IMG/VR virus record: IMGVR_UViG_3300039180_000770
Coordinates: 1-26,414 of that record
Reading direction: 5' to 3' (one strand)
DNA length: 26,414 nt
From: a virus
Lineage: Duplodnaviria > Caudoviricetes
Shown here: one piece after another, positions 6,005 to 22,439 of the stretch
How positions within the stretch are numbered: the first letter of the stretch is position 1
Layout: each line of letters opens with the position of its first letter
The notes under the pieces: model-generated
The model's database searches: none
Told to the model about the DNA's origin: nothing
The model's input: only the letters and a program-made list of their open reading frames with translations
Position numbers and translations under genes: made by a program

Positions 6005-6033
6005 TAAAACTAACTTAATTTTTAGCTATATAA
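6005..6033 (+). promoter_or_regulatory. Putative bipartite phage promoter (TA)AAAC-N17-ATATAA
   Basis: AAAC ends at 6010 and ATATAA is at 6028-6033; same architecture at five other gene starts. Confidence 0.6.
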
Positions 6034-6065
6034 AATATAATAACAGCTAAAGTAAAAAGTATAGT

Positions 6066-6869
6066 ATGAAGAAAAATATAGTTTGGTTTGATTTAGAAAC
6101 CACAGGAATAAGTACAACATCAGATCGCATTATTGAGATATGTATGATCAAGACTGATTTTGATGGAAATGAAATTGAAACTTATAATCAATTAGTTAAC
6201 CCAGGAAATGTAGAGATGCGACCTGAGGCTGTAGATAAGCATGGGATTTCTCTAGAGATGTTAAAGGATAAACCTACCTTTGAAATGATAGCATCTGAAA
6301 TAAATGATTTTATTGGTGATAGTGACTTAGGAGGGTATAATGCCTTATTCTTTGATGTACCATTCTTATGCGAGGAATTTATGAGATGTGGTATTATATT
6401 TGATCATCGCAGTAGAGCTGTAATGGACCCTTTCCTTATATACAGTAACTATGAAAAAAGAGATCTAACCAGTACTTATAAAAAATTCACAGGTAAAGAT
6501 TTAGAAGGCGCCCACAGAGCTGAAGCTGATGTTAGAGCTACAATGGAAATATTTCAAAAACAGAGAGAGGTTTATTCAATGGCTGAAACTGCTGAGGAGA
6601 TTGACAAAGAAGTAAATACTCGTAGAGCAGATCAAGTAGATTTAAGTGGTAAATTAAAATTTGCTGAAGTTGATGGCAAAAGAACAATTATATTTAATTT
6701 TGGTAAACATAAAGGTTTTGCTTTTAAAACTGTTTATAAGAATGATTCTAATTACATTAATTGGATTATTGAAAAAGGTGAGTTTTCTAAAGAACTTAAA
6801 ATCCTATGTACTAAATTGCTTGCAAAATTTAGAGCTGAAGAAAATAAAAATATAGAAATGCCATACTAA
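6066..6869 (+). CDS. DEDDh 3'-5' exonuclease (DnaQ/ExoX-like) with C-terminal FGKHKG domain
   Basis: ExoI FDLETTG, ExoII YNALFFDVPFL, ExoIII HRAEAD; C-terminal FNFGKHKG...YINWI motif. Confidence 0.92.
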   Translation: MKKNIVWFDLETTGISTTSDRIIEICMIKTDFDGNEIETYNQLVNPGNVEMRPEAVDKHGISLEMLKDKPTFEMIASEINDFIGDSDLGGYNALFFDVPFLCEEFMRCGIIFDHRSRAVMDPFLIYSNYEKRDLTSTYKKFTGKDLEGAHRAEADVRATMEIFQKQREVYSMAETAEEIDKEVNTRRADQVDLSGKLKFAEVDGKRTIIFNFGKHKGFAFKTVYKNDSNYINWIIEKGEFSKELKILCTKLLAKFRAEENKNIEMPY

Positions 6870-6931
6870 TCTTTCAGAAGTAAGAAAGATTTGTTACTAT
6901 TATAATATACTGAACAATAACACTAGAAAAA

Positions 6932-7261
6932 ATGAACAGATTAGAAAGACCAGATTTAGCAACAGATGTATCATTCCATGGGCATGCCTTTTTTGCAACA
7001 AAACAAGATATAGAAAAAGTATGCGGTACTGTAATGTATACCGATAATGATATTACTGAAAAGGTACAAAATGAATGGGAAATGCAAACTGAGGATAGTA
7101 CTGCAATTACTATATATGACTACAAAGAATATCGTGAATATTCTGATGATGAAAAGATTGAATGGCATATAGGCGCAAATAATAGATTTGGTTCAAAGAA
7201 AGGATATGATGAATTAAAAAGAGCCTTTCACCTACATCCTAAAGTTACTTATAATATATAA
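6932..7261 (+). CDS. Hypothetical phage protein
   Basis: 109-aa ORF with A-rich leader, co-oriented; EKVQNEW...TIYDYKEY...WHIG pattern. Confidence 0.75.
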   Translation: MNRLERPDLATDVSFHGHAFFATKQDIEKVCGTVMYTDNDITEKVQNEWEMQTEDSTAITIYDYKEYREYSDDEKIEWHIGANNRFGSKKGYDELKRAFHLHPKVTYNI

Positions 7262-7280
7262 TAAAGTTCATTGAATTATC

Positions 7281-7632
7281 GGGGGTGCACGGCTTTTGAC
7301 AGTATGATTGAAATAAAAACCACAGTACCGGGTGATGACCTACATCGACCTTAGCCGACAACGCTGAGTACGCAATGGCTGCCTAAGTAGGTAAGTAATG
7401 CACATCATGTTATTAGTATGCTTGTAAATAACCAAGATGTAAAAAGAAGCAGTATAGGTGTATATGGGCTAGCTATTAAAAACCACCTTAAGAGTTTTAT
7501 ACAGTACGCAGTTTTAGAATGTTATGCTTAAAACATTATTGATTTTTGGAAGTTTATAAAAACTTATCCTACACTGTAAGAATGTTTTTTATGAATACAT
7601 ATTGGACGTGGGTTCGAATCCCACCACCTCCA
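7281..7632 (+). ncRNA. ssrA: tmRNA (transfer-messenger RNA), one-piece
   Basis: Acceptor stem GGGGGTG (7281-7287) pairs with CACCTCC (7625-7631), including a G3:U wobble, with discriminator A at 7632. T-arm GTGGG-TTCGAAT-CCCAC (7608-7624). 5' GGCTTTTGAC motif. CAGTATG (7300-7306) pairs with CATATTG (7598-7604). Internal tag ORF ADNAEYAMAA* at 7354-7386. Confidence 0.96.
7354..7386 (+). other. tmRNA tag reading frame (A)ADNAEYAMAA*
   Basis: GCC GAC AAC GCT GAG TAC GCA ATG GCT GCC TAA, ending in the Y-A-x-A-A degron pattern. The exact resume codon (7354 vs 7357) is uncertain. Confidence 0.85.
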
Positions 7633-7658
7633 CAAAATAAAAATAGTTAAAATAAGTA

Positions 7659-7805
7659 ATGACAACAAATCAAGAAACAAACAACGGACAAACGCAAGTT
7701 AACCAAACCAGGAACTCGTTTAATGACAAGGTATCTAAGTATAAAATGCTAGGTTCTTCTAAAAAAGTACAGTGGGATAACATAAGAAGAAATCGATCAA
7801 TATGA
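7659..7805 (+). CDS. Small hypothetical protein (48 aa), not in ORF track
   Basis: MTTNQETNNGQTQVNQTRNSFNDKVSKYKMLGSSKKVQWDNIRRNRSI*; A-rich leader; ATGA overlap with the next ORF. Confidence 0.7.
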   Translation: MTTNQETNNGQTQVNQTRNSFNDKVSKYKMLGSSKKVQWDNIRRNRSI

Positions 7806-8011
7806 CAAATGATTATTCATATGTTATGAAGGTGATAACAAATAAAAATAATAACCGTTATCATTACCCTGCTCTTAAAAGATTAATATCTATTTGGGAA
7901 ATTAAATGGCAGGATGCACATAAAGAAAAATACTTTGATATTTATTTGCATTCTCTTAAAACTACACTCAAAAGATCGTTCAGTAAACAAATAGATAAAT
8001 TGACTATATAA
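7802..8011 (+). CDS. Hypothetical protein
   Basis: 69-aa ORF translationally coupled (ATGA) to the upstream small ORF. Confidence 0.65.
   Translation: MTNDYSYVMKVITNKNNNRYHYPALKRLISIWEIKWQDAHKEKYFDIYLHSLKTTLKRSFSKQIDKLTI
7984..8011 (+). promoter_or_regulatory. Putative bipartite phage promoter TAAAC-N17-ATATAA
   Basis: TAAAC 7984-7988 and ATATAA 8006-8011, 10 nt before the topoisomerase ATG. Confidence 0.65.
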
Positions 8012-8021
8012 AAATAAAAAT

Positions 8022-9896
8022 ATGGCAGTAAGCATTGAAAAGAAATACCAAAAATTAACAGATACAGAACATGTTCTATTAAGACCAGGTATGTATGTCG
8101 GTTCAATTAAGCCACATACAGAAGAAGTTTTTTTACCAATGAAAGGTAAAGATCAATTTCAACTTACTGAAGTAACCTATAATCCAGGTTTCTTAAAACT
8201 CTTTGATGAAATAGTATCTAACTCAGTTGATGAACATAAAAGAAATGCTAAGCTAAATAAAGTTAAAGTAGATATTGATATGGCTACTGGGCAAATATCA
8301 ATCTGGGATAACGGAGGTATACCTGTAAAGATTCATAAAGAGTATGATGAGTGGGTACCTGAAATGATTTTTTCAAATCTAAAAGCTGGTAGTAATTTTG
8401 ATGATACTGAAGATAGGGTTGTTGTTGGAACAAATGGTGTAGGTAGTACACTAACAAATATATTTAGTAAAGAATTTATAATTGAAACTTGTGATGGTAA
8501 AAAACAATTTGTTCAGACTTTTAAAAATAACATGTCTGAACGAACTAAAGCTAAAATTACAAATAAGAAAACTGCATTTACAAAAATAACATATCTTACT
8601 GATTTTAAAAGATTTGGTTTAAAGGGTATTAATAAGAATCATTATTTAATGATAACTAAAAGGCTTATTGATATTGCAGCATGTAATCCTACTCTTAAAA
8701 TATTCTTAAACGATAAAGCAATTGCGTTTAGAACATTTAAAGATTATGCTAATCGTTATGTAACTCCAGTCTTTTATGATCAATCAGAACATTGGAAAAT
8801 TGGAATAGGGCATTCAACAACTGGCTTTAAAGCAATATCATTTGTTAATTCTGTAGAAACTAAAGATGGCGGTACTCATGTTAATAATATAGACTGGCAA
8901 ATTACATCTTATCTTAGAGATAAAATTAAAAGAAAATACAGAGTAGATGTAAAACCTTCTGAATTAAGACAACATTTATATTTGTTTATTAACTGTACTG
9001 TTATTAATCCAGCATTCTCTTCACAAACAAAAGAAAAATTAATTACTGCCCCTAAGGATTTTGGTACAAGCCATGTTTTAAGTGAAAAGGTATTAAGGCA
9101 AGTTTTAAATTCAGAAATCATACAATCAGTACTAGATTGGATTGAGCGAAAAAAGGATGCAGAAGAAAGAGCAAAGCTTAGGAAACTAAATAAAGGTTTA
9201 GATAAAACTAAAGTTCTTAAATTAATCGATGCAAAGAAAAGAGGTGACAGGGAAAAATGTACACTTGCAATATTTGAAGGTGATTCTGCATCCTCTGCAT
9301 TTAGAAGATACCGAGAGCCTCAGTACCAAGGAGCATTTCCATTAAGAGGTAAATTTATAAATGTTAGAGAATTAACAGCATCTAAGGTTGTACAGAATAA
9401 AGAGGTACAATCAATGATGGCTGCTATGGGTTTAAAGATCGGACATGAACCTAAAGATCTGAGATATGGTAAAATACTTTTATATACCGATGCAGATGTA
9501 GACGGTAATTCTATTGCAGCACTGCTAATTAATTTCTTAGGTAAATATTGGCCAGAACTATTTAGTGAAGGTAGAATACTTAAAGTAGAAACTCCTCTTA
9601 TGGTTGCGAAGAAAGGTAAAGAATCTTTAAACTTTTATTCAGATGATGATTACCAAGAATGGGAATCTAAACAGAAAAATTTAAATTCTTGGTCAATCGA
9701 ATATAAGAAAGGTTTAGCTGCACTCGAAGATGCAGAATATAAAGAGATCATTAGAAGCCCGAGAACCTTTACTCTTACAAAAGACAATGGATTTAACAAT
9801 ACATTAGATATATGGTTCTCTAAAGATTCTACACCACGTAAAGGAAAGATACTTGGAGAGACTGTAATAATTAAAAACAACAAATCATTATTTTAA
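8022..9896 (+). CDS. Type II DNA topoisomerase, ATPase/TOPRIM subunit (T4 gp39+gp60 equivalent)
   Basis: EHVLLRPGMYVGS, EIVSNSVDE, DNGGIP, GTNGVG, EGDSA, PLRGK, TDADVDG and YKKGL motifs. Confidence 0.97.
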   Translation: MAVSIEKKYQKLTDTEHVLLRPGMYVGSIKPHTEEVFLPMKGKDQFQLTEVTYNPGFLKLFDEIVSNSVDEHKRNAKLNKVKVDIDMATGQISIWDNGGIPVKIHKEYDEWVPEMIFSNLKAGSNFDDTEDRVVVGTNGVGSTLTNIFSKEFIIETCDGKKQFVQTFKNNMSERTKAKITNKKTAFTKITYLTDFKRFGLKGINKNHYLMITKRLIDIAACNPTLKIFLNDKAIAFRTFKDYANRYVTPVFYDQSEHWKIGIGHSTTGFKAISFVNSVETKDGGTHVNNIDWQITSYLRDKIKRKYRVDVKPSELRQHLYLFINCTVINPAFSSQTKEKLITAPKDFGTSHVLSEKVLRQVLNSEIIQSVLDWIERKKDAEERAKLRKLNKGLDKTKVLKLIDAKKRGDREKCTLAIFEGDSASSAFRRYREPQYQGAFPLRGKFINVRELTASKVVQNKEVQSMMAAMGLKIGHEPKDLRYGKILLYTDADVDGNSIAALLINFLGKYWPELFSEGRILKVETPLMVAKKGKESLNFYSDDDYQEWESKQKNLNSWSIEYKKGLAALEDAEYKEIIRSPRTFTLTKDNGFNNTLDIWFSKDSTPRKGKILGETVIIKNNKSLF

Positions 9897-11246
9897 ATGA
9901 AAAACACTAGAACTGTAACATCTTTTTTTGATAAAGAATATTTAGATTATGCAAGATATGTTGTAGAAAACAGAGCTATACCAAGTTGCATTGATGGACT
10001 TAAACCAACACAGAGAAAGGTTGTTTATATTGCAAATAAAATCTGGAAAACTGGTAATGAAAAACCTATGAAGTTATTTCAACTTGCAGGTCGAGTTGCA
10101 GCTGAGGCATTTTATCATCATGGTAATACTTCATTAGAATCTTCAATGGTTGGAATGGCTCAAAAATTTAAAAATTCATTACCATTACTTGAAGGTGTTG
10201 GTCAATTCGGTTCTTTAAGAAGTCCTGCTGCTGGTGCACCTCGTTATATTAGTGCAAAGCTACATCCTAATTTTAGATTACTTTATCAAGACTTTGATTT
10301 ATTAGAAAATAAAATAGAAGAAGGTGAAAAAATAGAACCTGCATTTTTCTTACCTATTGTACCAACTGTTATATTAAATGGTACATCAGGTATTGCTGTT
10401 GGGTTTGCTACAAATATTTTAAATAGAAATCCTAAAGATGTAGTAGATGCATGTATATCTACTCTTAATAATAAAAAGATGAAAGTATTAGCTCCGTGGA
10501 TACAAGAATTTAAAGGAACTTTTACTAGAGACTTAGAAAATCCTAAAACATGGAAGATTAAAGGTCAGTATCAAATAATTAATACAACCACAGTAAAGAT
10601 AACTGCAATACCACCAAACTATACATATGAAAGATATGAAGAAATCTTAAATCTTTTACAAGAAAAAGGTATAATAGCTTCTTACGATGATAATTCGTCT
10701 GAAACTATTGAGTACACATTAAAATTTAAAAGATCTGTATTAACTAACTTAATAAGCAGTGAAGGTAAATTAGAAAGGGCTTTAAGATTAAATACACAAG
10801 AAACTGAAAACCTAACAACACTCGATGAACATGGTAAATTAAAGATCTTTGATAAAGCCGAAGATATAGTAAAACATTTTGTTGGTGTAAGATTACAGTG
10901 GTATCAAACAAGGAAAGATTATTTAATTGATAAAACTGAAAAGCAATTAGCATTAGTAACAAATAAAGCAAGGTTCATTAAAGATATTATTGATGGCAAG
11001 TTAAAAATTAACAATGTACCTAAGGAAAAGATTGTAACTTATTTAAAAACTAATTCATATGACACTGTTCATAGTTCATATGATTATCTTTTATCAATGG
11101 CTATTCATTCATTAACAAAAGAAAGATATGAAAAACTATTGTTAGAAAAAGAAGGGTGTATTATTGCTCTTAAAACATTAAAAGCAACAGATCCTAAAGA
11201 AATGTATTTAGGAGATCTTAAAAAATTAAAGCAATCAATTAAGTAA
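9897..11246 (+). CDS. Type II DNA topoisomerase, breakage-reunion subunit (T4 gp52-like)
   Basis: RAIP..IDGLKPTQRK, YHHG, GQFGS, APRY (catalytic Tyr) and NGTSGIAVGFAT motifs. Confidence 0.97.
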   Translation: MKNTRTVTSFFDKEYLDYARYVVENRAIPSCIDGLKPTQRKVVYIANKIWKTGNEKPMKLFQLAGRVAAEAFYHHGNTSLESSMVGMAQKFKNSLPLLEGVGQFGSLRSPAAGAPRYISAKLHPNFRLLYQDFDLLENKIEEGEKIEPAFFLPIVPTVILNGTSGIAVGFATNILNRNPKDVVDACISTLNNKKMKVLAPWIQEFKGTFTRDLENPKTWKIKGQYQIINTTTVKITAIPPNYTYERYEEILNLLQEKGIIASYDDNSSETIEYTLKFKRSVLTNLISSEGKLERALRLNTQETENLTTLDEHGKLKIFDKAEDIVKHFVGVRLQWYQTRKDYLIDKTEKQLALVTNKARFIKDIIDGKLKINNVPKEKIVTYLKTNSYDTVHSSYDYLLSMAIHSLTKERYEKLLLEKEGCIIALKTLKATDPKEMYLGDLKKLKQSIK

Positions 11247-11270
11247 ACTTTTTTAATAAACGACATATAA
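11244..11270 (+). promoter_or_regulatory. Putative bipartite phage promoter TAAAC-N16-ATATAA
   Basis: TAAAC 11244-11248 and ATATAA 11265-11270. Confidence 0.6.
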
Positions 11271-11287
11271 TAATAAATACCTACCCT

Positions 11288-11434
11288 ATGAAAATTTTTA
11301 AATTCTGTATCAATAAAGATTGTACAACAGCATGCGAAGCTGAAACTGAAAACGACGCCTGGGAATGGTTATCACAAACTAAGAGATTAAGTATACCAAA
11401 ATTAAAAAAACTTTATACAATAAAATTAAAATAA
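11288..11434 (+). CDS. Small hypothetical protein (48 aa), not in ORF track
   Basis: MKIFKFCINKDCTTACEAETENDAWEWLSQTKRLSIPKLKKLYTIKLK*; fills the gap between the promoter motif and the KTSC gene, ending 2 nt before its ATG. Confidence 0.65.
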   Translation: MKIFKFCINKDCTTACEAETENDAWEWLSQTKRLSIPKLKKLYTIKLK

Positions 11435-11436
11435 TT

Positions 11437-11664: not shown

Positions 11665-11666
11665 CT

Positions 11667-11894: not shown

Positions 11895-12366
11895 AGTAAT
11901 ACTAATAGGAAAGGCTGCTGCTGGAAAAGATCATATGAGAAAGGTTTTAGAGGGTAGAGGATTTACATACGGTACATCTTATACTACAAGACCTCCAAGG
12001 GAAGGCGAGATTGATGGTCAGGATTATTATTTTATATCAGAAAAGGACTTTAGGGATTTTGCAGATAATAACTACTGGTATGAGTATGTAGAATTCAATG
12101 GATGGTTTTATGGAACGAGTCATGATCAATTTAAAAAGAATTGTAATTTATTTGTAATGACTCCTAAAGGTGTAGAAGCAATAAATCCTATTGATAGAAA
12201 AGATTGTACAATCATTTATTTAGATATACCTTTAGAAGTTAGAACAAAGCGATTAGAAGAAAGAGGAGATCTTAATGATAAAATACAGCGGAGGATAGAT
12301 GCAGATGAAATTGATTTTGCAAACTTTAAAGATTATGATATTCTCATAAACAATTCTAACTTTTAA
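11887..12366 (+). CDS. gmk: Guanylate kinase-like protein
   Basis: P-loop GKAAAGKD; SYTTRPPREGEIDGQDYYF; EYVEFNGWFYGT. Confidence 0.92.
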   Translation: MNKVILIGKAAAGKDHMRKVLEGRGFTYGTSYTTRPPREGEIDGQDYYFISEKDFRDFADNNYWYEYVEFNGWFYGTSHDQFKKNCNLFVMTPKGVEAINPIDRKDCTIIYLDIPLEVRTKRLEERGDLNDKIQRRIDADEIDFANFKDYDILINNSNF

Positions 12367-12374
12367 TCATATAA
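12347..12374 (+). promoter_or_regulatory. Putative bipartite phage promoter TAAAC-N17-ATATAA
   Basis: TAAAC 12347-12351 (inside the gmk 3' end) and ATATAA 12369-12374. Confidence 0.65.
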
Positions 12375-12383
12375 AAATAAAAC

Positions 12384-12995
12384 ATGAGCAAATTCATTAT
12401 TATAGAAGGTACCGATAATGTAGGTAAAGATACCCAACAGGATTTAATTATTAAAAACATGAGTGATCACGTTTTTCATAAGCTACATTATTCATCATTA
12501 CCCTTTAAAGATGATATAGAAAAACATACTACATATTCTAAAGAGCTTTATGAAAGTATGTTTTTATTAATGATGAAATCTAAAGTAGGTTATAAAAAAG
12601 GTGATAATGATATTAACATTATTTTTAATAGATCTCATTTAGGTGAAACTGTTTATTCACCATTATATAGAGGTTACTCTGGTGATTATGTTTTTGATAT
12701 TGAAAAGAAATTTACTAAAGCATTAAGAGAAGATTTATATTTAATTACTCTAACCAATGATCCTCATACTATTTTAAAACGAGATGATGGCAAATCATTT
12801 TATGGTAATGAAGAAGAAGTTAAAGCTGAGGTTGATGGATTTAAACGAGCCCATAGGTTAAGTACTATTAAAAATAAGTTACACATTAATGTTGGTACAA
12901 TGAGTGCAATAGAGGTATCTAATATTATAACAGATTTCTTACACCACGAAAATATAGTAACTGGTGATAACAAACAATTAAACTTATTTGAATAA
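12384..12995 (+). CDS. Thymidylate-kinase-like dNMP kinase
   Basis: IIIEGTDNVGKDT P-loop; FNRSHLGETVYSPLYRG (variant of the DR motif). Confidence 0.82.
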   Translation: MSKFIIIEGTDNVGKDTQQDLIIKNMSDHVFHKLHYSSLPFKDDIEKHTTYSKELYESMFLLMMKSKVGYKKGDNDINIIFNRSHLGETVYSPLYRGYSGDYVFDIEKKFTKALREDLYLITLTNDPHTILKRDDGKSFYGNEEEVKAEVDGFKRAHRLSTIKNKLHINVGTMSAIEVSNIITDFLHHENIVTGDNKQLNLFE

Positions 12996-13177
12996 TGGGA
13001 AAGACTGAGGATTTATTATATGAAGCTTATAATGAAGGAATAAGAGGTGAGGTACTTGAAGAGAGTAGGCGTTTATCTGACTTAGGTGGCAAATATATTC
13101 ATATGCCATTTAGAGACCGATTAGAAGAAGCATTAAATAACATTAGAGAAAAGAATAAAAAGAATGAGAACATATAG
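12995..13177 (+). CDS. Hypothetical protein
   Basis: 60-aa ORF overlapping both neighbours. Confidence 0.7.
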   Translation: MGKTEDLLYEAYNEGIRGEVLEESRRLSDLGGKYIHMPFRDRLEEALNNIREKNKKNENI

Positions 13178-14054
13178 AGGAGATACATTTGCAGATGTTT
13201 ATGAAAAGGCATTAAGAGATACTTTAGAGAATCCTGATTATACTTCTAAACCAAGAGGTATGCAAATTAAAGAAATAAGTAATGCAGCTTTAGTTATAGA
13301 TGATCCTTATTTTCCACTTTATGAAAATCAAAAAAGAAGTAGCCAGTTTAAATATATTGCTGGTGAAACTGTTTGGTATTTTACAGGTAGAAAAGATATT
13401 GATTTTATCAGTAAGTATTCTAAGTTCTGGAGTCAATTAGATAACGGGGATGGTACTGTTAACTCTGCTTATGGTAATCTTTTATTTAAAGAAAGGCTAT
13501 CTGATGGCAGAAATCAATATCAGTGGGCATTAGATTCTTTAATAGAAGATAAAGATTCAAGGCAAGCAATTGTTCATTTTAATAAACCTTCTCATCAATG
13601 GAAAGGTAATAAAGATTTTGTATGTACTCTTAATGGTGTATTTCAGATTAGAGATAACAGATTAAACTTTACAGTTGATATGAGATCTAATGATTTAATA
13701 TTAGGTACAGCAACTGATGTAGCATTCTTTTGTTTATTACAACAGCAAATGTTAAGGCATTTACAATTAACTTATCCTAATCTTAAAATGGGTTCTTATA
13801 CTCATATTGTTCATTCATTGCATATTTATGAAAGACATTTTAATTTAGTAAAAGAAATGTTAAGCCATCCATTTTCTCATATGTCTTATCCTCCACTAAA
13901 GAAAAACTTAATTACTATTAAGGGTGATTCAACTGATGCTTTAAATTTATTAGAATTAAATATTGAAAAAGAAACCGTTAATGCAAACCTTGTTATTAAT
14001 GATTCTTTATTTAAATGGTTATCTGATTATAGCTTTCAGTTAACTGATATATAA
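13164..14054 (+). CDS. Thymidylate synthase family enzyme, dCMP hydroxymethylase-like (T4 gp42-like)
   Basis: NSAYG, DSRQA, KDFVCT (catalytic Cys), MRSNDLILGTATD and SLHIYERHF; Asp occupies the position of the dUMP-specifying Asn of ThyA. Confidence 0.85.
   Translation: MRTYRGDTFADVYEKALRDTLENPDYTSKPRGMQIKEISNAALVIDDPYFPLYENQKRSSQFKYIAGETVWYFTGRKDIDFISKYSKFWSQLDNGDGTVNSAYGNLLFKERLSDGRNQYQWALDSLIEDKDSRQAIVHFNKPSHQWKGNKDFVCTLNGVFQIRDNRLNFTVDMRSNDLILGTATDVAFFCLLQQQMLRHLQLTYPNLKMGSYTHIVHSLHIYERHFNLVKEMLSHPFSHMSYPPLKKNLITIKGDSTDALNLLELNIEKETVNANLVINDSLFKWLSDYSFQLTDI
14046..14054 (+). promoter_or_regulatory. Putative late-type promoter GATATATAA
   Basis: Overlaps the stop codon of the upstream gene, 14 nt before the ATP-grasp start; same motif as before the tail tube gene. 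Confidence 0.5.
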
Positions 14055-14068
14055 TAAAATAATAAATA

Positions 14069-15052
14069 GTGTTGAAATATTTAAAACTTTTTGAACAATT
14101 CCTAACAGAAAAAAAACCAGCAGGAGCACCAGACTTTAATCATTCAGATGCACCTGATACTGAAAATGATTTACATAAAATTTATTTAGCAATTAATCCA
14201 AAGAGTGGACATACTTGGTGGTATACTCCATTTGCTGCAGAAAAGTTTATGAATCAATTAGGTGATGACAATATGATGAAGGCAGATATTAATAAAGAAT
14301 ATCCTGTAATGAATTGGAAAAAGGAAGTCACTGAAAAATTAATTAATAAAGGTCTTGTTAAAAAAGAAAATGTTTATAATTTACCAGAGAATGTAAATAT
14401 GAGCTATAAAAAAGAATTTCATGAATTAGTTGATGGACAGGAGCATATACCAAAAACAGTAAATAATACTAAAGACGCTCTTAAATTAGGTTTTCCTTTA
14501 ATTGGTAAACCAACTGATAGTCATTCAGGTATTGGTATTCAAGTTTTTAAAAATCAAAAAGAATGGGACAACGCAGATCATTCAGAGTTAGATGTTTACT
14601 CAGAATATATTAATAAGGTTGCAGAATACAGATTTTTTGTTTTAAACGGCAAAGCTTTTTATTGGATGGAGAGAGAACCTTTAAATAAAAAGGCTGCATC
14701 AGGTGTTGGTAATGGTAAAGATAAAATGATGTTTAAATATATTAAAAAAGACATTACTAAATTACCTAATAATTTCAAAAAGTTAATTTTAAAATTTAGT
14801 AAAATATTTTCAAAGCTACCTTTTATTTGTTTTGATATTATGATAGATAAAGATGATAAGTTATACTTAATAGAAGCAAATCTTCACCCAGGCATGCCAT
14901 TTGATGCTACTGTTCAATTATATAGAGAATTGTTTAAAGATTTCTATGGCAGGGAAGTAAACAAGAAAGCAGATGAAGAACTTAATAAATTAAGTAAGTA
15001 CTTAGATAGCAAAACTTTAACCCACGATCCTACCAGATTTGAGATTGCTTAA
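14069..15052 (+). CDS. ATP-grasp ligase (RimK-like fold) with N-terminal capsid-targeting-like leader
   Basis: IPKT, FPLIGKP..SHSGIGI, YSEYI...EYRFFV, FDIMID and LIEANLHPG motifs; leader KYLKLFEQFLTE. Confidence 0.85.
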   Translation: MLKYLKLFEQFLTEKKPAGAPDFNHSDAPDTENDLHKIYLAINPKSGHTWWYTPFAAEKFMNQLGDDNMMKADINKEYPVMNWKKEVTEKLINKGLVKKENVYNLPENVNMSYKKEFHELVDGQEHIPKTVNNTKDALKLGFPLIGKPTDSHSGIGIQVFKNQKEWDNADHSELDVYSEYINKVAEYRFFVLNGKAFYWMEREPLNKKAASGVGNGKDKMMFKYIKKDITKLPNNFKKLILKFSKIFSKLPFICFDIMIDKDDKLYLIEANLHPGMPFDATVQLYRELFKDFYGREVNKKADEELNKLSKYLDSKTLTHDPTRFEIA

Positions 15053-15160
15053 TTTATTTTAATAAAATCTGAAAAAAGTTCTTAAAAAGTTTTCAGTTCC
15101 CAATAAATTTGTTTATATTTATACTGTATTTAATGAAACAATACACTGTAAAACAATTAT

Positions 15161-15688
15161 ATGAATAAAGAAATACAAAAAGATTTTTACATTACCTCCG
15201 ATACTTGGTTCGGTCGCCCTCAGATTCTTCAGATTGCAAATAGGCAATTTAATAATATAGAGGAAATGAATTCTACTTTGATTAAAAATTGGAATAAAAA
15301 GGTAAAGAAAAACGACGTAGTATTTCATCTAGGTAATTTTGCATGGGATCCAATAACCGCTCGTAAAGTACTCAAAAAATTAAACGGAACAATCTATTTT
15401 CTAAAAGGTAGCCATGATGCTGCATTAGAGGAAGTTATAGAAGACTTCCCTAAAGCTGAATTCTTTAATGATTCTATAATGGAACTAACAGATTTTGATA
15501 CTGTTATTTGTCATTATCCACTATCAGTTTGGAACGGTAAAGGTTCAGGAACTATTCATATTCACGGTCATACAGTATTTGATCATAAAACAGATCTCAC
15601 AATTGAAAACAGATTTAATATTTGTACTGACTTTTGGGGATACTCACCTATTAATTATTTAACTTTAAAAGACTTCATAAATGGCTAA
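15161..15688 (+). CDS. Calcineurin-like metallophosphoesterase family protein with degenerate metal ligands
   Basis: TSDTWFG, EEMN..LIKNWN..V...DVVFHLGNF, KGSHD, CHYP and HIHGHT motifs. Confidence 0.85.
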   Translation: MNKEIQKDFYITSDTWFGRPQILQIANRQFNNIEEMNSTLIKNWNKKVKKNDVVFHLGNFAWDPITARKVLKKLNGTIYFLKGSHDAALEEVIEDFPKAEFFNDSIMELTDFDTVICHYPLSVWNGKGSGTIHIHGHTVFDHKTDLTIENRFNICTDFWGYSPINYLTLKDFING

Positions 15689-16319
15689 AAAAATCAAAAA
15701 GACTTACAAGGAACTTGCAATTGAATTTAAAAAGACAAAAAACGAAAAAGTATATAATCAGTTATATGCTAAAATGAGACCAGGATTATGGTCGTATGTA
15801 AACAACATTGTAAAAGATCCTAGTGTTGCCGATGATATTGTATCAACCACTTTAACCACAGTGTATTTAAAAATTGAACAATACAATGAAGATTATCAAA
15901 TTACAACATGGGCATATCGTATTGCTTATAATGAATGTATAGGATGGATAAGATACAGAAATAGAAAAGTAAGTATGAATGCATTTACTGATAAAGGAAT
16001 TGATCCTCCTACTTTTATGTTACCACACATTGACACAGACAATTCACTACCACCAACAGAAGCAGATCACTGGGAAGCTGAACATCTCTTAACAGAAAAA
16101 GTAAGATTAACAACTGAAGCTATAAAAGCTTTACCTCCAATGTATAGGAGATTCATGGAGGAAAGGTTCTTAAATAAAAAATCTTATAATGATATTTTAG
16201 ATATAATGTCTGATTGTGAAAAAGGCATAAATTTACAAACTGTGAAAAACCGCATATTCCGTGGAAGGAAAATAGTCAGAAAACAACTAGAAAGTATGAA
16301 AGTCTTCTCCGAAGCCTAA
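15681..16319 (+). CDS. RNA polymerase sigma factor, sigma70/ECF-like (regions 2 and 4)
   Basis: Region 2: ADDIVSTTLTTVY...Y....QITTWAYRIAYNEC. Region 4: AIKALPPMYR...SYNDI...INLQTVKNRIFRGRK. Confidence 0.9.
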   Translation: MAKKIKKTYKELAIEFKKTKNEKVYNQLYAKMRPGLWSYVNNIVKDPSVADDIVSTTLTTVYLKIEQYNEDYQITTWAYRIAYNECIGWIRYRNRKVSMNAFTDKGIDPPTFMLPHIDTDNSLPPTEADHWEAEHLLTEKVRLTTEAIKALPPMYRRFMEERFLNKKSYNDILDIMSDCEKGINLQTVKNRIFRGRKIVRKQLESMKVFSEA

Positions 16320-16342
16320 ATACATAAACAACAGATAATACT

Positions 16343-16795
16343 ATGTACATAAGAAAACTATATAAAGAATTACAAATTTGGTATAAGATCAGAAAGATCG
16401 CCAATGAGAACAAAACAAAACTTTTAGAAAAAGGTTTTAGGGTTGATTGGATAGGAAGGATTTATACTGTAATTAATTTACCAGAAGAAGTTGTAAATCA
16501 ACCTATTTCACAAGAAGGGTATGTATTAATGCAATTAAGAGAACATGATAAATTATTTTTGGATATGGGAATTTCCGATTACGTATCTCCAGAATTTAAT
16601 CCAATACCTGAAACTAATTCATTTCTTTTAGTATTATCCGCAGATCGTGATCATTTACAATTTTGGCCTTTTGTTATATCATTTATTAAAACTACAGTAG
16701 GAATTTTTATACTAAGAATACTTTATTTAATATTTCAATCCTATGGTGAAAAAATATCAGAATTATGGAACAAGATGATAAACCTTCTATTTTAA
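16343..16795 (+). CDS. Hypothetical protein with C-terminal hydrophobic segment
   Basis: 150 aa; RVDWIGRIYTVINLP motif; hydrophobic helix near the C-terminus. Confidence 0.8.
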   Translation: MYIRKLYKELQIWYKIRKIANENKTKLLEKGFRVDWIGRIYTVINLPEEVVNQPISQEGYVLMQLREHDKLFLDMGISDYVSPEFNPIPETNSFLLVLSADRDHLQFWPFVISFIKTTVGIFILRILYLIFQSYGEKISELWNKMINLLF

Positions 16796-17001: not shown

Positions 17002-17050
17002 TAAAACTTATTATACTTAAAAATCGATAATGTTATCGGTTTTTTTGTCT

Positions 17051-17077
17051 TAAACTTTATTCTTTTTTTACATATAA
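17051..17077 (+). promoter_or_regulatory. Putative bipartite phage promoter TAAAC-N16-ATATAA
   Basis: TAAAC 17051-17055 and ATATAA 17072-17077, before the exonuclease gene. Confidence 0.65.
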
Positions 17078-17090
17078 AAATAAACAGATT

Positions 17091-17840
17091 ATGGCAACAG
17101 CTCAATCATTAGCAACAACAGAAACTATAAATGGTAAAAGATACTATAATATAGGTAAAGGTAAAAAATATCCATCAGTAACAACAATCTTAGGTGCAAT
17201 GACAGATAAGTCTGGTATTGACAAATGGAGAAAACGAATAGGTGAAGAAAAGGCTGATGCCATATCTAAGTTTTCAGCAAATCGTGGAACTGTAATGCAT
17301 CAATTTTGTGAATACTTTTTAGGATCAGAAAAGGAGACTATTAGGGAAAGGCTTATTGACGCGCAAACTCTTATTGGTCCATTTGTAAAAGAAAATGGTT
17401 TTACTGAAGAAGAAACTAATATAGGAAGAAAATTATTCTTTAATTTTTATAATGGTAAATGTTTTGATCGTATTGCAAATGTAGTGTCTATCGAAGATAC
17501 CCTACACTCACCTGTAATGGGGGGTTATGCAGGTAGGGTAGATATTATATATGAGAATGAAAAAGGGCATCTAGTGATCTTAGATTTTAAATCTTCGAAA
17601 AAAGCAAAAAGAGAAGATTGGATAGAAAATTATAAAATGCAAATTGCTGCTTATGCATTAGCATACTGGGAAATGAATAAAAGAAAACCACAAGGCGGCG
17701 AAATTTGGATAAGTAATGAAGCAGATGGTTTTCCTCAGGTTTTTGAAATGTCTTTTGACGATATAACTAAATATGGCAAAATGTTTTTGGAGTTAGTAAA
17801 GGGTTTTCACGAAAAGTATGTACTTGAACCGAATATATAA
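17091..17840 (+). CDS. PD-(D/E)XK exonuclease (Cas4/RecB-like phage family)
   Basis: YPSVTTIL, RGT.MH, AGRVD, LDFKSS and QIAAYA motifs. Confidence 0.9.
   Translation: MATAQSLATTETINGKRYYNIGKGKKYPSVTTILGAMTDKSGIDKWRKRIGEEKADAISKFSANRGTVMHQFCEYFLGSEKETIRERLIDAQTLIGPFVKENGFTEEETNIGRKLFFNFYNGKCFDRIANVVSIEDTLHSPVMGGYAGRVDIIYENEKGHLVILDFKSSKKAKREDWIENYKMQIAAYALAYWEMNKRKPQGGEIWISNEADGFPQVFEMSFDDITKYGKMFLELVKGFHEKYVLEPNI
17831..17840 (+). promoter_or_regulatory. Putative late-type promoter GAATATATAA
   Basis: Identical to the 10-mer at 449-458; overlaps the exonuclease stop codon. Confidence 0.5.
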
Positions 17841-17855
17841 AAAAAATCAAAAACA

Positions 17856-18152: not shown

Positions 18153-18156
18153 ACAA

Positions 18157-18444: not shown

Positions 18445-18446
18445 AT

Positions 18447-18965
18447 GTGGCTAATACACCTATAATACCTGGCGTACCTACTCCAACAAGCGGAGATCCA
18501 AAATGTGCATTAACTCTATGTGGTAGAATTATTGCTCAAGTTGATTGTATTATTATAATAATGCAAGGAACTAATGGCTGTATAGATATACAGTTCTTTG
18601 GAAAGGACGGTCTTCCTTTAGACTTAGATAGATTTACAGAAATTCAAATTATGTTATATAATGAGTTTGACTGTACAATTGCTAACTTTTTCTATCCAGA
18701 TGTACCTACTGGTTGTAAAGGATTAGTAATGACTATCTTACAATATGTAGATGCCAATGGTGTTATTCATAATGAAGGTATGGTAAGAATATGTTTAGAT
18801 GCTGCGTGCACAAAAACAAGCCCTAGTTCAATATTTGCAGAAATCTTATTAACAGAGTTAACAACTGCAGGTACTGCTGAAACTTCAGGGATTCCATGTT
18901 TACAAGTAGCAAAAATAATTCCATCAAGAATTTATGAAAATGGCTGTGATGATGGGTGTAGTTAA
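18447..18965 (+). CDS. Cys-rich hypothetical protein, possibly a virion beta-sandwich protein
   Basis: GTG start; 11 Cys in 172 aa; alternating hydrophobic beta-strand patterns. Confidence 0.7.
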   Translation: MANTPIIPGVPTPTSGDPKCALTLCGRIIAQVDCIIIIMQGTNGCIDIQFFGKDGLPLDLDRFTEIQIMLYNEFDCTIANFFYPDVPTGCKGLVMTILQYVDANGVIHNEGMVRICLDAACTKTSPSSIFAEILLTELTTAGTAETSGIPCLQVAKIIPSRIYENGCDDGCS

Positions 18966-18977
18966 AATATTAATATT

Positions 18978-19754
18978 ATGAAAACATTAAGAGAAAGATT
19001 ATTACATTATTTTATCATAGGTATATTTTGTAGCCTTTATTTTTTGGTAGCTACTATATCAATGATAAATTCTGTTGCATTTTTTGATTTAAGCCATAGT
19101 GGTTTAATGTCATGGTCATTAGCGATAGGATTTGAAATAGGGGCAGCGGCTTCTCTTGCTGCTATTATTATTTTAGATAAAACAAACAAACAAATGGTTT
19201 GGGGTTTATTCTTATTGCTAACTTCATTTCAGATGATGGCTAATTCCTTTCATGCTTTTATTAATTTAGAAAATTATATGGGTTGGATCGAATTGTTTGG
19301 CCTAGAAGAAACAGAGCCAATATATCAAAAAAGAATTTTATCTATTGTTAGTGGTGCTATACTTCCATTAGTAGCACTAGGATTTATTAAATCATTAGTT
19401 GATTATATCAGACCAGAGAAAACTGAAAAAAAAAGTTTAGATGAGGGTACAGACAACCTTGTTAAAAGTAAAATCCCAGTAGTAGTAAGTGAGGAGCTAT
19501 TGGATGAAGATTCTTATTCTCGTGATGCCGAAAAGGCAAAAAATCAAGTAGAAATTGGAGAAGTGCACATAGCACCTGAAACGGTAATTACCGAAGTACA
19601 GGTTGCTGATGCTGTAATAGAGCCAGTTTCTCCTTCGCATATTACACCAGTTGGAGATCCTATTGTGATACCAACAACCGAAACACCAACTAAAGCAGTA
19701 AAGCCACCATTAACGGCTAGACCTTTTAATAGAGGTGTTAATTCAAAACCATAA
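18978..19754 (+). CDS. Integral membrane protein (about 4 TM helices) with Pro/Glu/Val-rich tail
   Basis: Four hydrophobic segments in the first ~140 aa, followed by a low-complexity tail. Confidence 0.8.
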   Translation: MKTLRERLLHYFIIGIFCSLYFLVATISMINSVAFFDLSHSGLMSWSLAIGFEIGAAASLAAIIILDKTNKQMVWGLFLLLTSFQMMANSFHAFINLENYMGWIELFGLEETEPIYQKRILSIVSGAILPLVALGFIKSLVDYIRPEKTEKKSLDEGTDNLVKSKIPVVVSEELLDEDSYSRDAEKAKNQVEIGEVHIAPETVITEVQVADAVIEPVSPSHITPVGDPIVIPTTETPTKAVKPPLTARPFNRGVNSKP

Positions 19755-19807
19755 TCCTTTGTGATTAACTTTATGATTCGGAGGATTTTAAAAAATAAAA
19801 TATTAAT

Positions 19808-20515
19808 ATGCCCGCACGCACATACGATGACGAAGTCTTTAAAGAAAAGAGAAGACCAAAAAATCCAATAACATTTAAATTAAAACTTAATGAAGAGCAG
19901 AAGATAGCAAAACAAACAATATTATTAAATACAATTACATTACTTGCAGGTAAAGCAGGATCAGGTAAAACTTTATTAGCTTGCCAAGTTGCATTAGATG
20001 GATTATTTAGAAGGCATTATGAAAAAATAATTATAACTAGGCCAACCGTATCAAAAGAAGAGATAGGTTTTTTACCCGGTGATTTACATGCAAAGATGGA
20101 TCCGTGGGTACAACCGATTTATCAAAATATGTATAGTCTATATGGAAAGGATAAAGTACAACCTTTTATAGAAAGCGGCCAAATAGAAATTGTTCCAGTT
20201 TCATTTATGAGAGGTAGAACCTTTGTTGATAGTTGCGTTATTGTAGATGAAGCACAGAATGTAACTAATGACCAGATGGAAATGATTGTAACCAGAGTAG
20301 GTATAAATTCTAAAATGATTATATGTGGTGATGATGGCCAAGTTGATTTAAAAGGAAGAGGTGAGTCAGGATTTAGATTTTTGTATAATCAATCATCTAA
20401 AATTAAAAACTTATCTTCTATTACATTATTACAAAATCACAGAGATCCTATAGTAGATGATTTAATTGAAATCTATGAAGAGGAAAATTGTAAAAGATCA
20501 AATAAAAAAAAATAA
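19808..20515 (+). CDS. phoH: PhoH-family ATPase
   Basis: GKAGSGKT, IIITRP, IGFLPG, FMRGRTF, IVDEAQN, TRVG..SK and GD..QVDL motifs. Confidence 0.96.
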   Translation: MPARTYDDEVFKEKRRPKNPITFKLKLNEEQKIAKQTILLNTITLLAGKAGSGKTLLACQVALDGLFRRHYEKIIITRPTVSKEEIGFLPGDLHAKMDPWVQPIYQNMYSLYGKDKVQPFIESGQIEIVPVSFMRGRTFVDSCVIVDEAQNVTNDQMEMIVTRVGINSKMIICGDDGQVDLKGRGESGFRFLYNQSSKIKNLSSITLLQNHRDPIVDDLIEIYEEENCKRSNKKK

Positions 20516-20518
20516 AAT

Positions 20519-20785
20519 ATGGAGATTCCAAAAAAAGGAAAAGTATTACTTCAGTTCACAGCCGATTGGTGTGGACCGTGTAGGGCGATGAAATCAGTAA
20601 CAGAAGAATTTAAAAGTAAATCAGATGTTACATTCCAAAAAGTAAATGTAGATAAGGAATCTAATATAGCACAAAAATATGGGGTACGAAGTATTCCATG
20701 TTTTGTTGTCGTTGAAGATGATAAAGAAAAAGTTAGAAAAGTTGGCTCACAATCATTAAGCCAATTATTAGATCTTGTAAAATAA
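20519..20785 (+). CDS. trxA: Thioredoxin
   Basis: FTADWCGPC active site; KVNVD; YGVRSIP. Confidence 0.95.
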   Translation: MEIPKKGKVLLQFTADWCGPCRAMKSVTEEFKSKSDVTFQKVNVDKESNIAQKYGVRSIPCFVVVEDDKEKVRKVGSQSLSQLLDLVK

Positions 20786-20794
20786 AGTATTTAA

Positions 20795-21499
20795 ATGAAA
20801 GAAGATATAATTAACTGCCCATGGGCCTCATCCAAAGCTCAATTTTTAAATAAATTAAATTCAAAGGATGCATCAAATTATTTATGGATATTTGATAATG
20901 GTCATGGTGGTATTATAGACGGTGTATATCAAACAGCAGGAAAGCGGTCTCCGTTATGGCCTGATGGTGAAATATTATACGAAGGTGAATTTAATAGAGG
21001 TATAGTAAATAGGCTAATAAAATTATGTACCGATTCTGGCATTGATTGTATTAATTTAGTTGATACACAAGAAGACATAGCTTTATCAGAAAGAACTTCT
21101 AAAGCTAACTCTATTGCAAAAGAATCTGAAAAACCTTGTATTTATGTAAGCATTCATGCCAATGGGTTTAGTGATGAATCTGCTAATGGGTGGTCATGTT
21201 ATACATCAGTAGGACAAACTAAATCAGATGAGATAGCAACAATACTTTATAAAAAGGCAGAAGCTGAATTTCCAGATGAAAAAATGAGAAAGGATACTTA
21301 TTCAGATGGTGATGTAGATAAAGAATCTAATTTTTGGGTATTAAGAAAAACTAGTATGCCTTCAATATTATCTGAAAATTTCTTTATGACTAATTCAGAA
21401 AATTGCCATAAATATCTTTTGAGTGAAAGCGGTAGAGATCGTATTGCTAAAATCCACTTTGAAATGATACAGGAAGTTGAATCTACATTACCAATATAA
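20795..21499 (+). CDS. N-acetylmuramoyl-L-alanine amidase (Amidase_3), probable endolysin
   Basis: DNGHGG, E.EFNR, L.ER...AN, SIHAN and L.KT.MPSILSENFFMTN motifs. Confidence 0.93.
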   Translation: MKEDIINCPWASSKAQFLNKLNSKDASNYLWIFDNGHGGIIDGVYQTAGKRSPLWPDGEILYEGEFNRGIVNRLIKLCTDSGIDCINLVDTQEDIALSERTSKANSIAKESEKPCIYVSIHANGFSDESANGWSCYTSVGQTKSDEIATILYKKAEAEFPDEKMRKDTYSDGDVDKESNFWVLRKTSMPSILSENFFMTNSENCHKYLLSESGRDRIAKIHFEMIQEVESTLPI

Positions 21500-21539
21500 A
21501 ATGGAAAGGTAACGGATAAATAAAAAAAATAAAACAATT

Positions 21540-21791
21540 ATGAAAGAAAAAATAATTTATTTAGCAGGTGCACTACTTTTTGGAGTAGCGTCATGGCTAA
21601 TTGGAGCGGTTTATAGCATATCAGTAGATACTGCAATAATCAAAGATAAGATTGAAAAGGTGTATGAGGAGAACTGTCCTTATTGTATACATGCTGCGCA
21701 TAGTTCAATTGGTGAACACCCATTATTATCTCCTACAATAAAACATGCACATCAGCATGTTGGTGAGGAAACAATTAAGGTAAACGATTAA
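21540..21791 (+). CDS. Small single-pass membrane protein, His-rich with CxxC; possible lysis accessory
   Basis: N-terminal TM helix; CPYCIHAAH...HP...HAHQH; adjacent to the amidase gene. Confidence 0.65.
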   Translation: MKEKIIYLAGALLFGVASWLIGAVYSISVDTAIIKDKIEKVYEENCPYCIHAAHSSIGEHPLLSPTIKHAHQHVGEETIKVND

Positions 21792-21800
21792 CAAAAAACC

Positions 21801-21883
21801 AGTGGATTAAAACCCACTCTTAGGACCGAAACTAGTTTTCGGATTAAGTGCCAGGAGTTTCGCTACTTCTGGCATTGTTTTTT
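21801..21883 (+). ncRNA. Candidate structured RNA element of three tandem hairpins, the last terminator-like
   Basis: AGTGG/CCACT (21801-21818); CCGAAA/TTTCGG (21826-21842); 12-bp stem at 21847-21876 with loop TTCGCT. GC-richer than other intergenic DNA in the window. Confidence 0.4.
21847..21883 (+). terminator. Rho-independent terminator
   Basis: AGTGCCAGGAGT-TTCGCT-ACTTCTGGCATT stem with two G:U pairs, followed by GTTTTTT. Confidence 0.8.
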
Positions 21884-21890
21884 ATAAACC

Positions 21891-21978
21891 AGACATCTTG
21901 ACATAAATTATAAAGAAAAATGGACAATATGTCAACAATTTTACTTTGGCACGGTTTTTTCAGTATAGTATATAAATA
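21891..21978 (+). promoter_or_regulatory. hsp20 upstream control region: GACA/TGTCA operator-like repeats, sigma54-like TGGCACG, and TATAAATA
   Basis: Inverted repeat TTGACATA (21898-21905) / TATGTCAA (21928-21935); TGGCACG-GTTT-TTTCA at 21947-21962; TATAAATA at 21971-21978. Confidence 0.5.
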
Positions 21979-22015
21979 AGGAAACAAATCTTTATTTGTA
22001 AAAAACTAAATAAAT

Positions 22016-22414
22016 ATGTACACATTTTTTAATGGCTTTAAGCCAGTAACACAAGCAAGAAGAATCAACGATAATATTGATACACTATTAAAAGATCCTT
22101 TCTGGGATGAATTTGAAAACTTCTTTACAAAACCATCAAAAGGTTGGCATTGTATAAAGGAAGACGATAAGTGGATTTTAGAAATAGCAATTCCTGGATT
22201 AGTTAAAGAAGATTTAAAAGTTAAAATGATAAAGGGTGAATTAAGCATCATATCAGAAAATGAAGACAATGTTTGGTTAGGATCTTTTGATAAAAGGTTT
22301 ACTTTACCACAAGATGTAAATACTAAAAAAATTAAAGCAAAAGTAGAAAACGGAGTTTTAACTATAACGCTATTAATAAAAGAAGATACTGAAAATAATA
22401 TAGACATTAAGTAA
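22016..22414 (+). CDS. Small heat-shock protein (Hsp20/alpha-crystallin)
   Basis: EIAIPGLVKEDLKV, GSFDKRFTLP and IKAKVENGVLTI motifs, plus C-terminal IDI (IxI). Confidence 0.95.
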   Translation: MYTFFNGFKPVTQARRINDNIDTLLKDPFWDEFENFFTKPSKGWHCIKEDDKWILEIAIPGLVKEDLKVKMIKGELSIISENEDNVWLGSFDKRFTLPQDVNTKKIKAKVENGVLTITLLIKEDTENNIDIK

Positions 22415-22439
22415 ACAAATTAAAGAGTTAAGTATATAA
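22412..22439 (+). promoter_or_regulatory. Putative bipartite phage promoter TAAAC-N17-ATATAA
   Basis: TAAAC 22412-22416 and ATATAA 22434-22439. Confidence 0.62.

Follow-up and report, generated by a model that had tools for sequence, protein, structure and literature searches.

A stretch of 26,414 nt from the virus record IMGVR_UViG_3300039180_000770 (the window), which belongs to a T4-like myovirus of Bacteroidota, carries six copies of a two-part element, AAAC-N16/17-ATATAA, hereafter the M site, and encodes a sigma factor resembling the extracytoplasmic function (ECF) type at 15681-16319 (+). From the joint distribution of element and protein we conclude, with good probability, that the M sites are promoters with AAAC as -35 and TATAA as -10 element, read by this phage sigma factor on the host core RNA polymerase. 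The arrangement of the sites likely amounts to a sigma relay of the SPO1 kind operating in T4-like phages, where an ECF sigma factor would stand in for MotA/AsiA. Genome-wide tests were made on relatives of the window.

Two-part sites in the window and their spread in related phages

A pattern search returned exactly six AAAC-N16/17-ATATAA matches in the window, all on the + strand, which is the coding strand. Shuffled versions of the window contained 0.95 sites on average and none of 100 shuffles reached six. When combinations of a 4-mer, a gap and a 5-mer were scanned de novo over 35 upstream regions of the window, the pair of AAAC and an ATATAA-type element ranked first. The first-pass annotation, made from the sequence, had described six copies with a T before AAAC in five of them and a partial overlap with upstream coding sequence. 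All of this was confirmed: the base preceding AAAC is T except at site 1, where it is A, and sites 2, 3, 4 and 6 overlap upstream genes; its start positions lie 1-2 nt upstream of AAAC. A generic sigma-70 scan was uninformative (93 sites against 106.5 expected). The distance from the end of the site to the next start codon is 32, 10, 17, 9, 13 and 36 nt for sites 1 to 6; a translation signal was ruled out, as this distance varies between 9 and 36 nt and the spacing to AAAC is fixed.

Site 1 (6007-6033, N17) lies before the gene of a DEDDh exonuclease (6066-6869) and was kept in all three evaluable related loci. The last bases of site 2 (7985-8011, N17) form the stop codon of a 69-aa open reading frame (ORF; 7802-8011); the site precedes the topoisomerase II operon, which encodes two subunits (8022-11246). 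It recurs in all 39 related loci in 25 sequence versions, in which both elements are fixed and the spacer is free. Site 3 (11245-11270, N16) overlaps the topoisomerase stop codon and has a counterpart at position 47223 of the related contig G001. Its target had been given as the KTSC and guanylate kinase (gmk) genes; these do belong to the run of genes that follows, behind a previously unlisted 48-aa ORF (11288-11434) that comes first and with a 75-aa ORF between them. Site 4 (12348-12374, N17), which begins within gmk and was kept in 38 of 41 related loci, is followed by a deoxynucleoside monophosphate (dNMP) kinase gene (12384-12995) and a thymidylate-synthase-family gene (13164-14054). Site 5 (17052-17077, N16) precedes a PD-(D/E)XK nuclease gene (17091-17840) and is lineage-specific: it occurs in 6 of 39 related loci, and elsewhere the nuclease gene abuts its upstream neighbor; individual sites are thus gained and lost. 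Immediately upstream of site 5 lie a short hairpin and, behind it, a T run (17024-17047, +), which resemble a terminator-promoter cassette; they were missed by the terminator scan. Site 6 (22413-22439, N17) overlaps the hsp20 stop codon and precedes a 90-aa hypothetical gene (22476-22748). It was scored in 11 of 25 loci, with AAAC clipped by the edge of the search window in 13 of the 14 misses, and is present in LR756500.1. In TAAAC of sites 3 and 6, the bases TAA serve as stop codon of the gene before (11244-11246 and 22412-22414). Overlap of the -35 element with the preceding stop codon is frequent, as TAA-AC or, in relatives of site 6, as TGA-AAC, and may in part determine whether T or G stands in front of AAAC.

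Five of the six window sites lead to operons of DNA or nucleotide genes, as the first-pass annotation had stated for nearly all of them. Genome-wide the class is broader: in relatives the motif precedes helicase, recombinase, topoisomerase and gp55 genes as well as genes for sugar-nucleotide enzymes, glycosyltransferases, the prohead protease and hypothetical proteins.

In the relatives, genes were called by a simple longest-ORF method that places some starts wrongly, and counts of upstream sites are approximate. Among 34 loci around homologues of the sigma factor, gaps of 16 and 17 nt held 89 and 74 sites, compared with 1-23 at each other gap between 8 and 28. In the four whole contigs of relatives that were searched, 22-30 M sites each were found, nearly all of them sharing one strand, while the reversed pattern gave 3-5; five more contigs agreed. 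The 277 sigma-bearing viral loci collected were reduced to 109 non-redundant ones (sigma factors less than 88% mutually identical), whose clusters reach down to a mean identity of about 20% to the window sigma factor. An AAAC-N17/18-TATAA site was found in 99 of these 109 loci, against 20-37 for control spacings, and in 329 of their 2863 upstream regions, against 22-47 for the controls. The two-part form described in the first pass was retained with an invariant core of AAAC-N17/18-TATAA, while neither the T in front of AAAC nor the base preceding TATAA is constant, and the genome-wide search for its fixed spacing that had been proposed there showed enrichment in the relatives. Chance or AT-richness as the cause of the M sites was ruled out by the shuffles, the controls with other spacings or a reversed pattern, and the strand bias.

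By its tail tube, and by the portal of a relative, the phage is closest to LR756500.1, followed by Lak phages, phages of 630-735 kb, PAU, and Tenacibaculum and Chryseobacterium phages; the likeness to Flavobacterium phage MaF61 is weaker. CheckV figures of the relatives imply genomes near 280-310 kb, and the phage may belong to the moraphages (PMC12619734). Four metatranscriptome assemblies with a marine label cover 26-30 of the 30 bins, for the most part at 90-99% identity; being contigs, they are silent on transcription starts, strand and level.

The sigma factor and its covariation with the motif

The product of 15681-16319 is an ECF-like (group 4) sigma factor of 212 aa that comprises regions 2 and 4 only (Pfam Sigma70_r2 and r4_2). 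It scored above the cut-off of NCBIfam TIGR02937 (sigma70-ECF superfamily), and its best row was SigW, although it remained far below the SigW cut-offs (79.4 against 209 and 60.1 against 243.1 bits). The best match in the PDB was Bacillus subtilis SigW (E 8e-12). The predicted structure (predicted local distance difference test, 77.9) has two helical domains connected by a low-confidence linker (residues 95-121), and its top Foldseek matches are ECF sigma factors. The ECF-like assignment of the first pass therefore stands, with SigW as the closest solved relative. In SigW crystallized with DNA, residues T168, K170, T171, R172, H174, R175, K148, S154 and L155 contact TGAAAC, as described in PMC6713349. 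They align, in the same order, to T187, K189, N190, R191, F193, R194, R162, S168 and Y169 of the phage protein, and the residues at these positions are invariant or nearly so among 38 homologues.

Orthologues of the sigma factor were found in LR756500, Lak-A1, LR756501, LR756502, LR756504 and LR745206, and the motif was searched upstream of genes in Lak-A1 as a whole and in 41-440 kb parts of the other large phages. AAAC-N17/18-TATAA exceeded its control in LR756500 (6 vs 0.8), Lak-A1 (58 vs 6.3), LR756504 (53 vs 5.8), LR756502 (25 vs 2.2) and LR745206 (26 vs 4.2), and more weakly in LR756501 (11 vs 3.7); the large phages bearing the motif are Lak-A1 and others of 460-735 kb. The only Sigma70_r2 matches were the orthologue and gp55 in LR745206, and the orthologue alone in LR756502. 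PTm1, pT24 and MA9V-1 have gp55, but neither an orthologue nor an enrichment of the motif.

The motif also varied with the recognition helix. Where residue 194 of the sigma factor is Arg, 125 of 219 sites have G and 71 have T before AAAC (background G 14%); where it is Lys, 94 of 108 sites have A there. Counted per locus, Arg194 favored G or T in 51 of 53 cases and other residues favored A in 27 of 30. The pairing of Arg194 with G or T fits the bond between R175 and G-35 in SigW. In a clade with a TVRTR helix the motif shifts to GAAC (26 vs 15). A further variant comes from the cultured MaF61, whose ORF93, annotated as hypothetical, is a divergent orthologue (a profile built without ORF93 finds it at E 6.7e-19; hhalign 97%) located between guanylate-kinase and thymidylate-synthase genes. 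Its recognition helix differs, and the dominant motif of MaF61 is TGCAAC-N15-GCATT, present in 21 of 187 upstream regions, including those of the dihydrofolate reductase, thymidylate synthase, gmk, ligase and gp55-like genes. This pattern was found in none of the other loci among the 227 searched. As no relatives of the MaF61 sigma factor were found in viral contigs, the covariation in MaF61 is a single case.

That a host ECF sigma factor reads the M sites, the phage protein doing something else, is very unlikely. F. psychrophilum has seven ECF sigma factors (PMC9723704), and PAU carries the motif without a detected orthologue and is almost devoid of TAnnTTTG promoters. However, the motif changes with the helix of the phage's own sigma factor. 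It is the same across phages of very different recorded hosts (Prevotella for Lak) and absent from phages of Tenacibaculum and Chryseobacterium without the phage sigma factor, and the ECF-type motif of F. psychrophilum, as described in PMC9723704, has a CGT -10 box.

Downstream of the sigma gene, 16343-16795 (+) encodes a 150-aa protein with a C-terminal hydrophobic helix and a confident alpha/beta model, for which no Pfam, atlas or fold assignment was obtained. The gene lies at most two genes downstream of the sigma gene in 28 of 30 loci of cluster C4, 19 of 19 of C14, 23 of 29 of C12 and 0 of 56 of C7. Its homologues usually follow the sigma gene directly, also in Lak-A1, are unlinked in four megaphages and occur in PAU. 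The protein is a candidate anti-sigma factor or membrane core protein.

Three promoter classes and the proposed relay

The upstream regions of the related contigs G001 and G002 fall into three patterns, E, M and L. Class E is TTTCAG-N17-TATATTT(A/G), the 3' part of which resembles the -7 box of Bacteroidota sigma-A, TAnnTTTG (PMC9723704). In the window such an early-type promoter, TTTCAG-N17-TATATTTA (15091-15121, +), with a host sigma-A-like -7 element, stands before the operon of the sigma factor and a phosphoesterase (15161-15688, +; PHROG 547). The phosphoesterase gene overlaps the sigma start, this gene order is kept in loci L001-L034, and the two genes are likely co-transcribed. TTTC[AC]-N16-20-TATATTT[AG] precedes the operon in 38 of 41 related loci, with an exact TAnnTTTG in 19 of 41. 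The sigma gene has no M site of its own in the window, as the first pass had noted, and an autoregulatory M site was found before it in 0 of 42 loci of the window's clade. In Lak-A1 (L132-L159), AAAC-N18-TATAA occurs 53 times and a variant, AGAC-N18-TATAA, is also enriched (24 copies, one of them upstream of the sigma gene).

Class L, RATAWATAA, lacks AAAC and shares ATATAA with the M sites. In the window, AATATATAA (450-458, +) precedes the tail tube gene, and further elements of this class lie at 1090, 7253, 14046, 17832, 21515 and 22801. Two gene sets of G001 (65% complete) that we chose from PHROG labels, 20 replication and 16 structural genes, were compared. Class M preceded 12 of the 20 replication and 4 of the 16 structural genes (P = 0.049), class L 2 of 20 and 16 of 16 (P = 4e-8). 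In five of the seven motif-bearing genomes examined (G001, G002, LR756504, LR756502 and LR745206), an M site precedes the gene of the gp55-like late sigma factor (PHROG 234). A class E promoter before the sigma operon and an M site before gp55 form the wiring that a relay from host sigma factor to M-site reader to gp55 would require.

In the proposed relay, host sigma-A would transcribe the phosphoesterase-sigma operon from TTTCAG-N17-TATATTT(A/G). The ECF sigma factor would then bind the host RNA polymerase core, its region-4 helix (T187, K189, N190, R191, F193, R194) reading (G/T)AAAC as SigW reads TGAAAC and its region 2 opening the -10 element. This holoenzyme would drive replication, recombination and nucleotide genes together with the T4-type late sigma factor gp55, which in turn would read the -10-only RATAWATAA class before virion genes. 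The ECF sigma factor would in this way run what we infer to be the middle transcription programme. The sigma cascade suggested in the first pass, with this protein as reader, gains support from the motif tracking both the sigma factor and its helix; sigma dependence and middle timing are put forward as predictions.

Two other ways of using the same elements were considered. In the first, gp55 itself would read ATATAA, and AAAC would be the box of a separate activator, making the -35 accessory. Classes M and L do have ATATAA in common, some sites fit both, such as the one before the prohead protease, and the related contig G026 carries -10-only sites. But in five genomes the gp55 gene itself follows an M site, PTm1, pT24 and MA9V-1 combine gp55 with absence of the motif, and the late pattern is matched by none of the six window M sites, which makes this reading very unlikely. 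In the second, AAAC would be a MotA-like activator box that works alongside host sigma-A, the arrangement of T4 middle promoters. Its distance of about 30 nt to the likely start is that of a MotA box. However, host sigma-A reads TAnnTTTG (PMC9723704), which the M sites lack, and no MotA or AsiA family match was found among the 135 of 221 proteins of the 65% complete G001 that were scanned with PHROG; there is hardly any chance that this reading is correct.

Several observations weigh against the ECF sigma factor as reader of the M sites. The first concern the covariation. On the tree, the link with residue 194 amounts to only two parsimony changes and hence to two independent events, not 83. 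The window's clade has Arg194 and yet favors T over G (28 vs 11), and three loci of the TVRTR clade with Arg189 retain AAAC. An M-type site stands upstream of the sigma gene itself in Lak-A1 and LR756502, and of the seven motif-bearing genomes Lak-A1 and LR756501 showed no M site before gp55. The replication bias of the M sites in G001 is modest, at P = 0.049 on self-chosen gene sets. Four contigs of one subclade (G026, G027, G028 and G038) keep the sigma factor without an excess of the motif; in G026 the helix is intact and the replication genes show CATATAA-like -10 elements without AAAC. G036 shows no M motif either. The -35 element is therefore not universal in the family.

The remaining points concern a second phage sigma factor. 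PAU has TGAAAC-N17-TATAA (22 vs 3.2 in the control), but no orthologue of the ECF-like protein was detected there when sought in five ways; besides gp55, PAU has only the RpoD-like gp1. An RpoD-like sigma factor also occurs in G002, G007 and G017, the ECF sigma factor of G007 being 92% identical to that of the window, and the window's phage thus probably has one. In G002 it is a protein of 189 aa with RpoD-like region 2 and region 4 (L045:6559-7128) behind an early-type promoter.

This RpoD-like family, including PAU gp1, might read the M sites, since TATAA(T/A) resembles the -10 hexamer of group-1/2 sigma factors. Its members in G002, G007 and G017 are close homologues, their best NCBIfam rows are of RpoD/RpoS type, and in PAU the motif is present with gp1 as the sole sigma factor besides gp55. 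The family was, however, not found in LR745206, LR756501, LR756504 or MaF61, and it occurred in only 2 of 21 further large contigs, of which 17 have the motif above the reversed control, some of them slightly. MA9V-1 has the RpoD-like protein but not the M motif, and this reader would leave the covariation with the ECF helix unexplained. We consider it improbable; the cross-lineage tests favor the ECF sigma factor over the second phage sigma factor as M-site reader. The RpoD-like protein may serve the early class. In phages that have it (the window's clade and MA9V-1), TTTCA or TGTCA replaces the host TTTG upstream box.

PAU showed further peculiarities. Its genome (L086-L096) has about 35 AACTGAAAC-N14-TAGTA sites, many within inverted repeats; of these TGAAAC-N14-TAGTA sites, 22 fit AAAC-N17/18-TATAA. 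Promoters of the host type TAnnTTTG are almost absent (7 of 289), and AACTGAAA in PAU is the reverse complement of TTTCAGTT from early promoters of the window's clade.

Other features of the window lie around these promoters. A phage transfer-messenger RNA with the tag DNAEYAMAA (7281-7633, +) follows the late-type element at 7253-7261. A protein with a GIY-YIG-like N-terminus (1121-1591, +) is encoded behind a late-type element. G001 and G002 keep it between the genes for tail tube and hub, and it seems to be domesticated and not mobile. Upstream of hsp20, TGGCACGGTTTTTTCAG (21948-21964, +) resembles what we take to be a sigma-54 -24/-12 promoter, and a GCAC-containing element is kept there in 18 of 23 related loci. 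Flavobacterial chaperone genes belong to the sigma-54 class (PMC9723704), and a fourth, host heat-shock-type promoter possibly precedes hsp20. The same gap contains a perfect TTGACA-N17-TATAAT (21907-21935, -) pointing away from hsp20.

The thymidylate-synthase-family gene behind site 4 (13164-14054, +) encodes ATDVA where the true thymidylate synthase of G001 has PFNIA. In this family, Asp in place of Asn marks enzymes that modify deoxycytidine monophosphate (dCMP), such as hydroxymethylases, which suggests such an enzyme here. This motif, together with the dNMP kinase and many glycosyltransferases nearby, hints at modified phage DNA.

Meaning and comparison with known systems

Taken over all lineages, the ECF sigma factor and AAAC-N17/18-TATAA are somewhat likely to be the ancestral middle switch of a branch of T4-like Bacteroidota jumbo phages and megaphages without RNA polymerase, comprising this clade, Lak, the 630-735 kb phages and MaF61. 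If so, the switch would be a third solution besides T4 MotA/AsiA and phage RNA polymerases, and the natural helix variants (Arg or Lys at 194, Lys or Arg at 189, and MaF61) would spell out a sigma-promoter code. Phage sigma cascades as a class are already known from SPO1, which limits the surprise; new here are the breadth of the motif, the covariation of sigma factor and promoter, and a system for tests that can be grown in culture. No Lak phage or related megaphage is in culture, and the genome papers checked are silent on how transcription is timed without an RNA polymerase of their own: the words sigma and promoter occur neither in PMC9723584 and PMC11165621, which cover bS21 phages and Lak taxonomy, nor in the MaF61 paper (PMC13269007). 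A literature search with few subscription papers in its scope found no paper describing the M motif. One short motif sorts largely hypothetical megaphage genes into a replication-phase set, and MaF61, with its diverged orthologue and 21 matching sites, allows a direct test of the model. These sigma-promoter pairs are distinct from TAnnTTTG of the host and might be used in Bacteroidota as orthogonal switches.

The small basic ORF of G001 (about 114.2 kb) that we take to be bS21-like lies on the + strand (L040, near 14120-14320), far from the terminase-capsid-portal block at 16-33 kb. This arrangement differs from that of the bS21 phage clades of Chen 2022, whose bS21 gene lies in that block, on the reverse strand. 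The moraphages are described as having no RNA polymerase and a core sigma-factor orthogroup (PMC12619734). Like the moraphages, bS21 phages and Lak phages, the phage of the window is a large Bacteroidota phage, and Lak-A1 shares both the sigma orthologue and the motif.

With SigW of B. subtilis and with E. coli sigma-E the phage sigma factor would share the type of -35 element (TGAAAC for SigW), and SigW residues T168, K170, R172, R175 and S154 recur as T187, K189, R191, R194 and S168. Unlike in SigW, T171 is replaced by N190 and H174 by F193, the score is far below the SigW cut-off, and the proposed -10 element is (Y)RTATAA rather than what we take to be the SigW -10, CGTA. The proposed regulon consists of replication instead of envelope-stress genes, and the window's clade lacks an autoregulatory site. 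Phage-encoded sigma factors with promoters of their own are also known from phage 7-11 (gp47) and phiEco32 (gp36), where they serve late or middle/late genes; the 7-11 promoter is bipartite as well, GTAAtg-(16)-aCTA (PMC8948821).

The closest parallels are SPO1 and T4. The SPO1 cascade runs from host sigma-A through gp28 for middle to gp34 for late genes (PMC13401047). As there, a phage sigma factor made from an early host-sigma promoter would serve middle genes and a second one late genes, a likeness that is here seen at the level of sequence. Unlike in SPO1, the proposed middle sigma factor is of ECF type and the late one resembles T4 gp55, in a T4-like phage of Bacteroidota; the SPO1 switch also needs gp27 and gp33. 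With T4 the phage shares the gp55-like late sigma factor, a -10-only late element before virion genes, and a T4-like set of replication and virion genes. T4 middle transcription uses a MotA box with a sigma-70 -10 element, whereas the presumed middle genes here have an ECF-style bipartite promoter. AsiA has its own role in T4 middle transcription (PMC7824862). An ECF-type middle sigma factor in a T4-like phage corresponds to neither the SPO1 nor the T4 arrangement.

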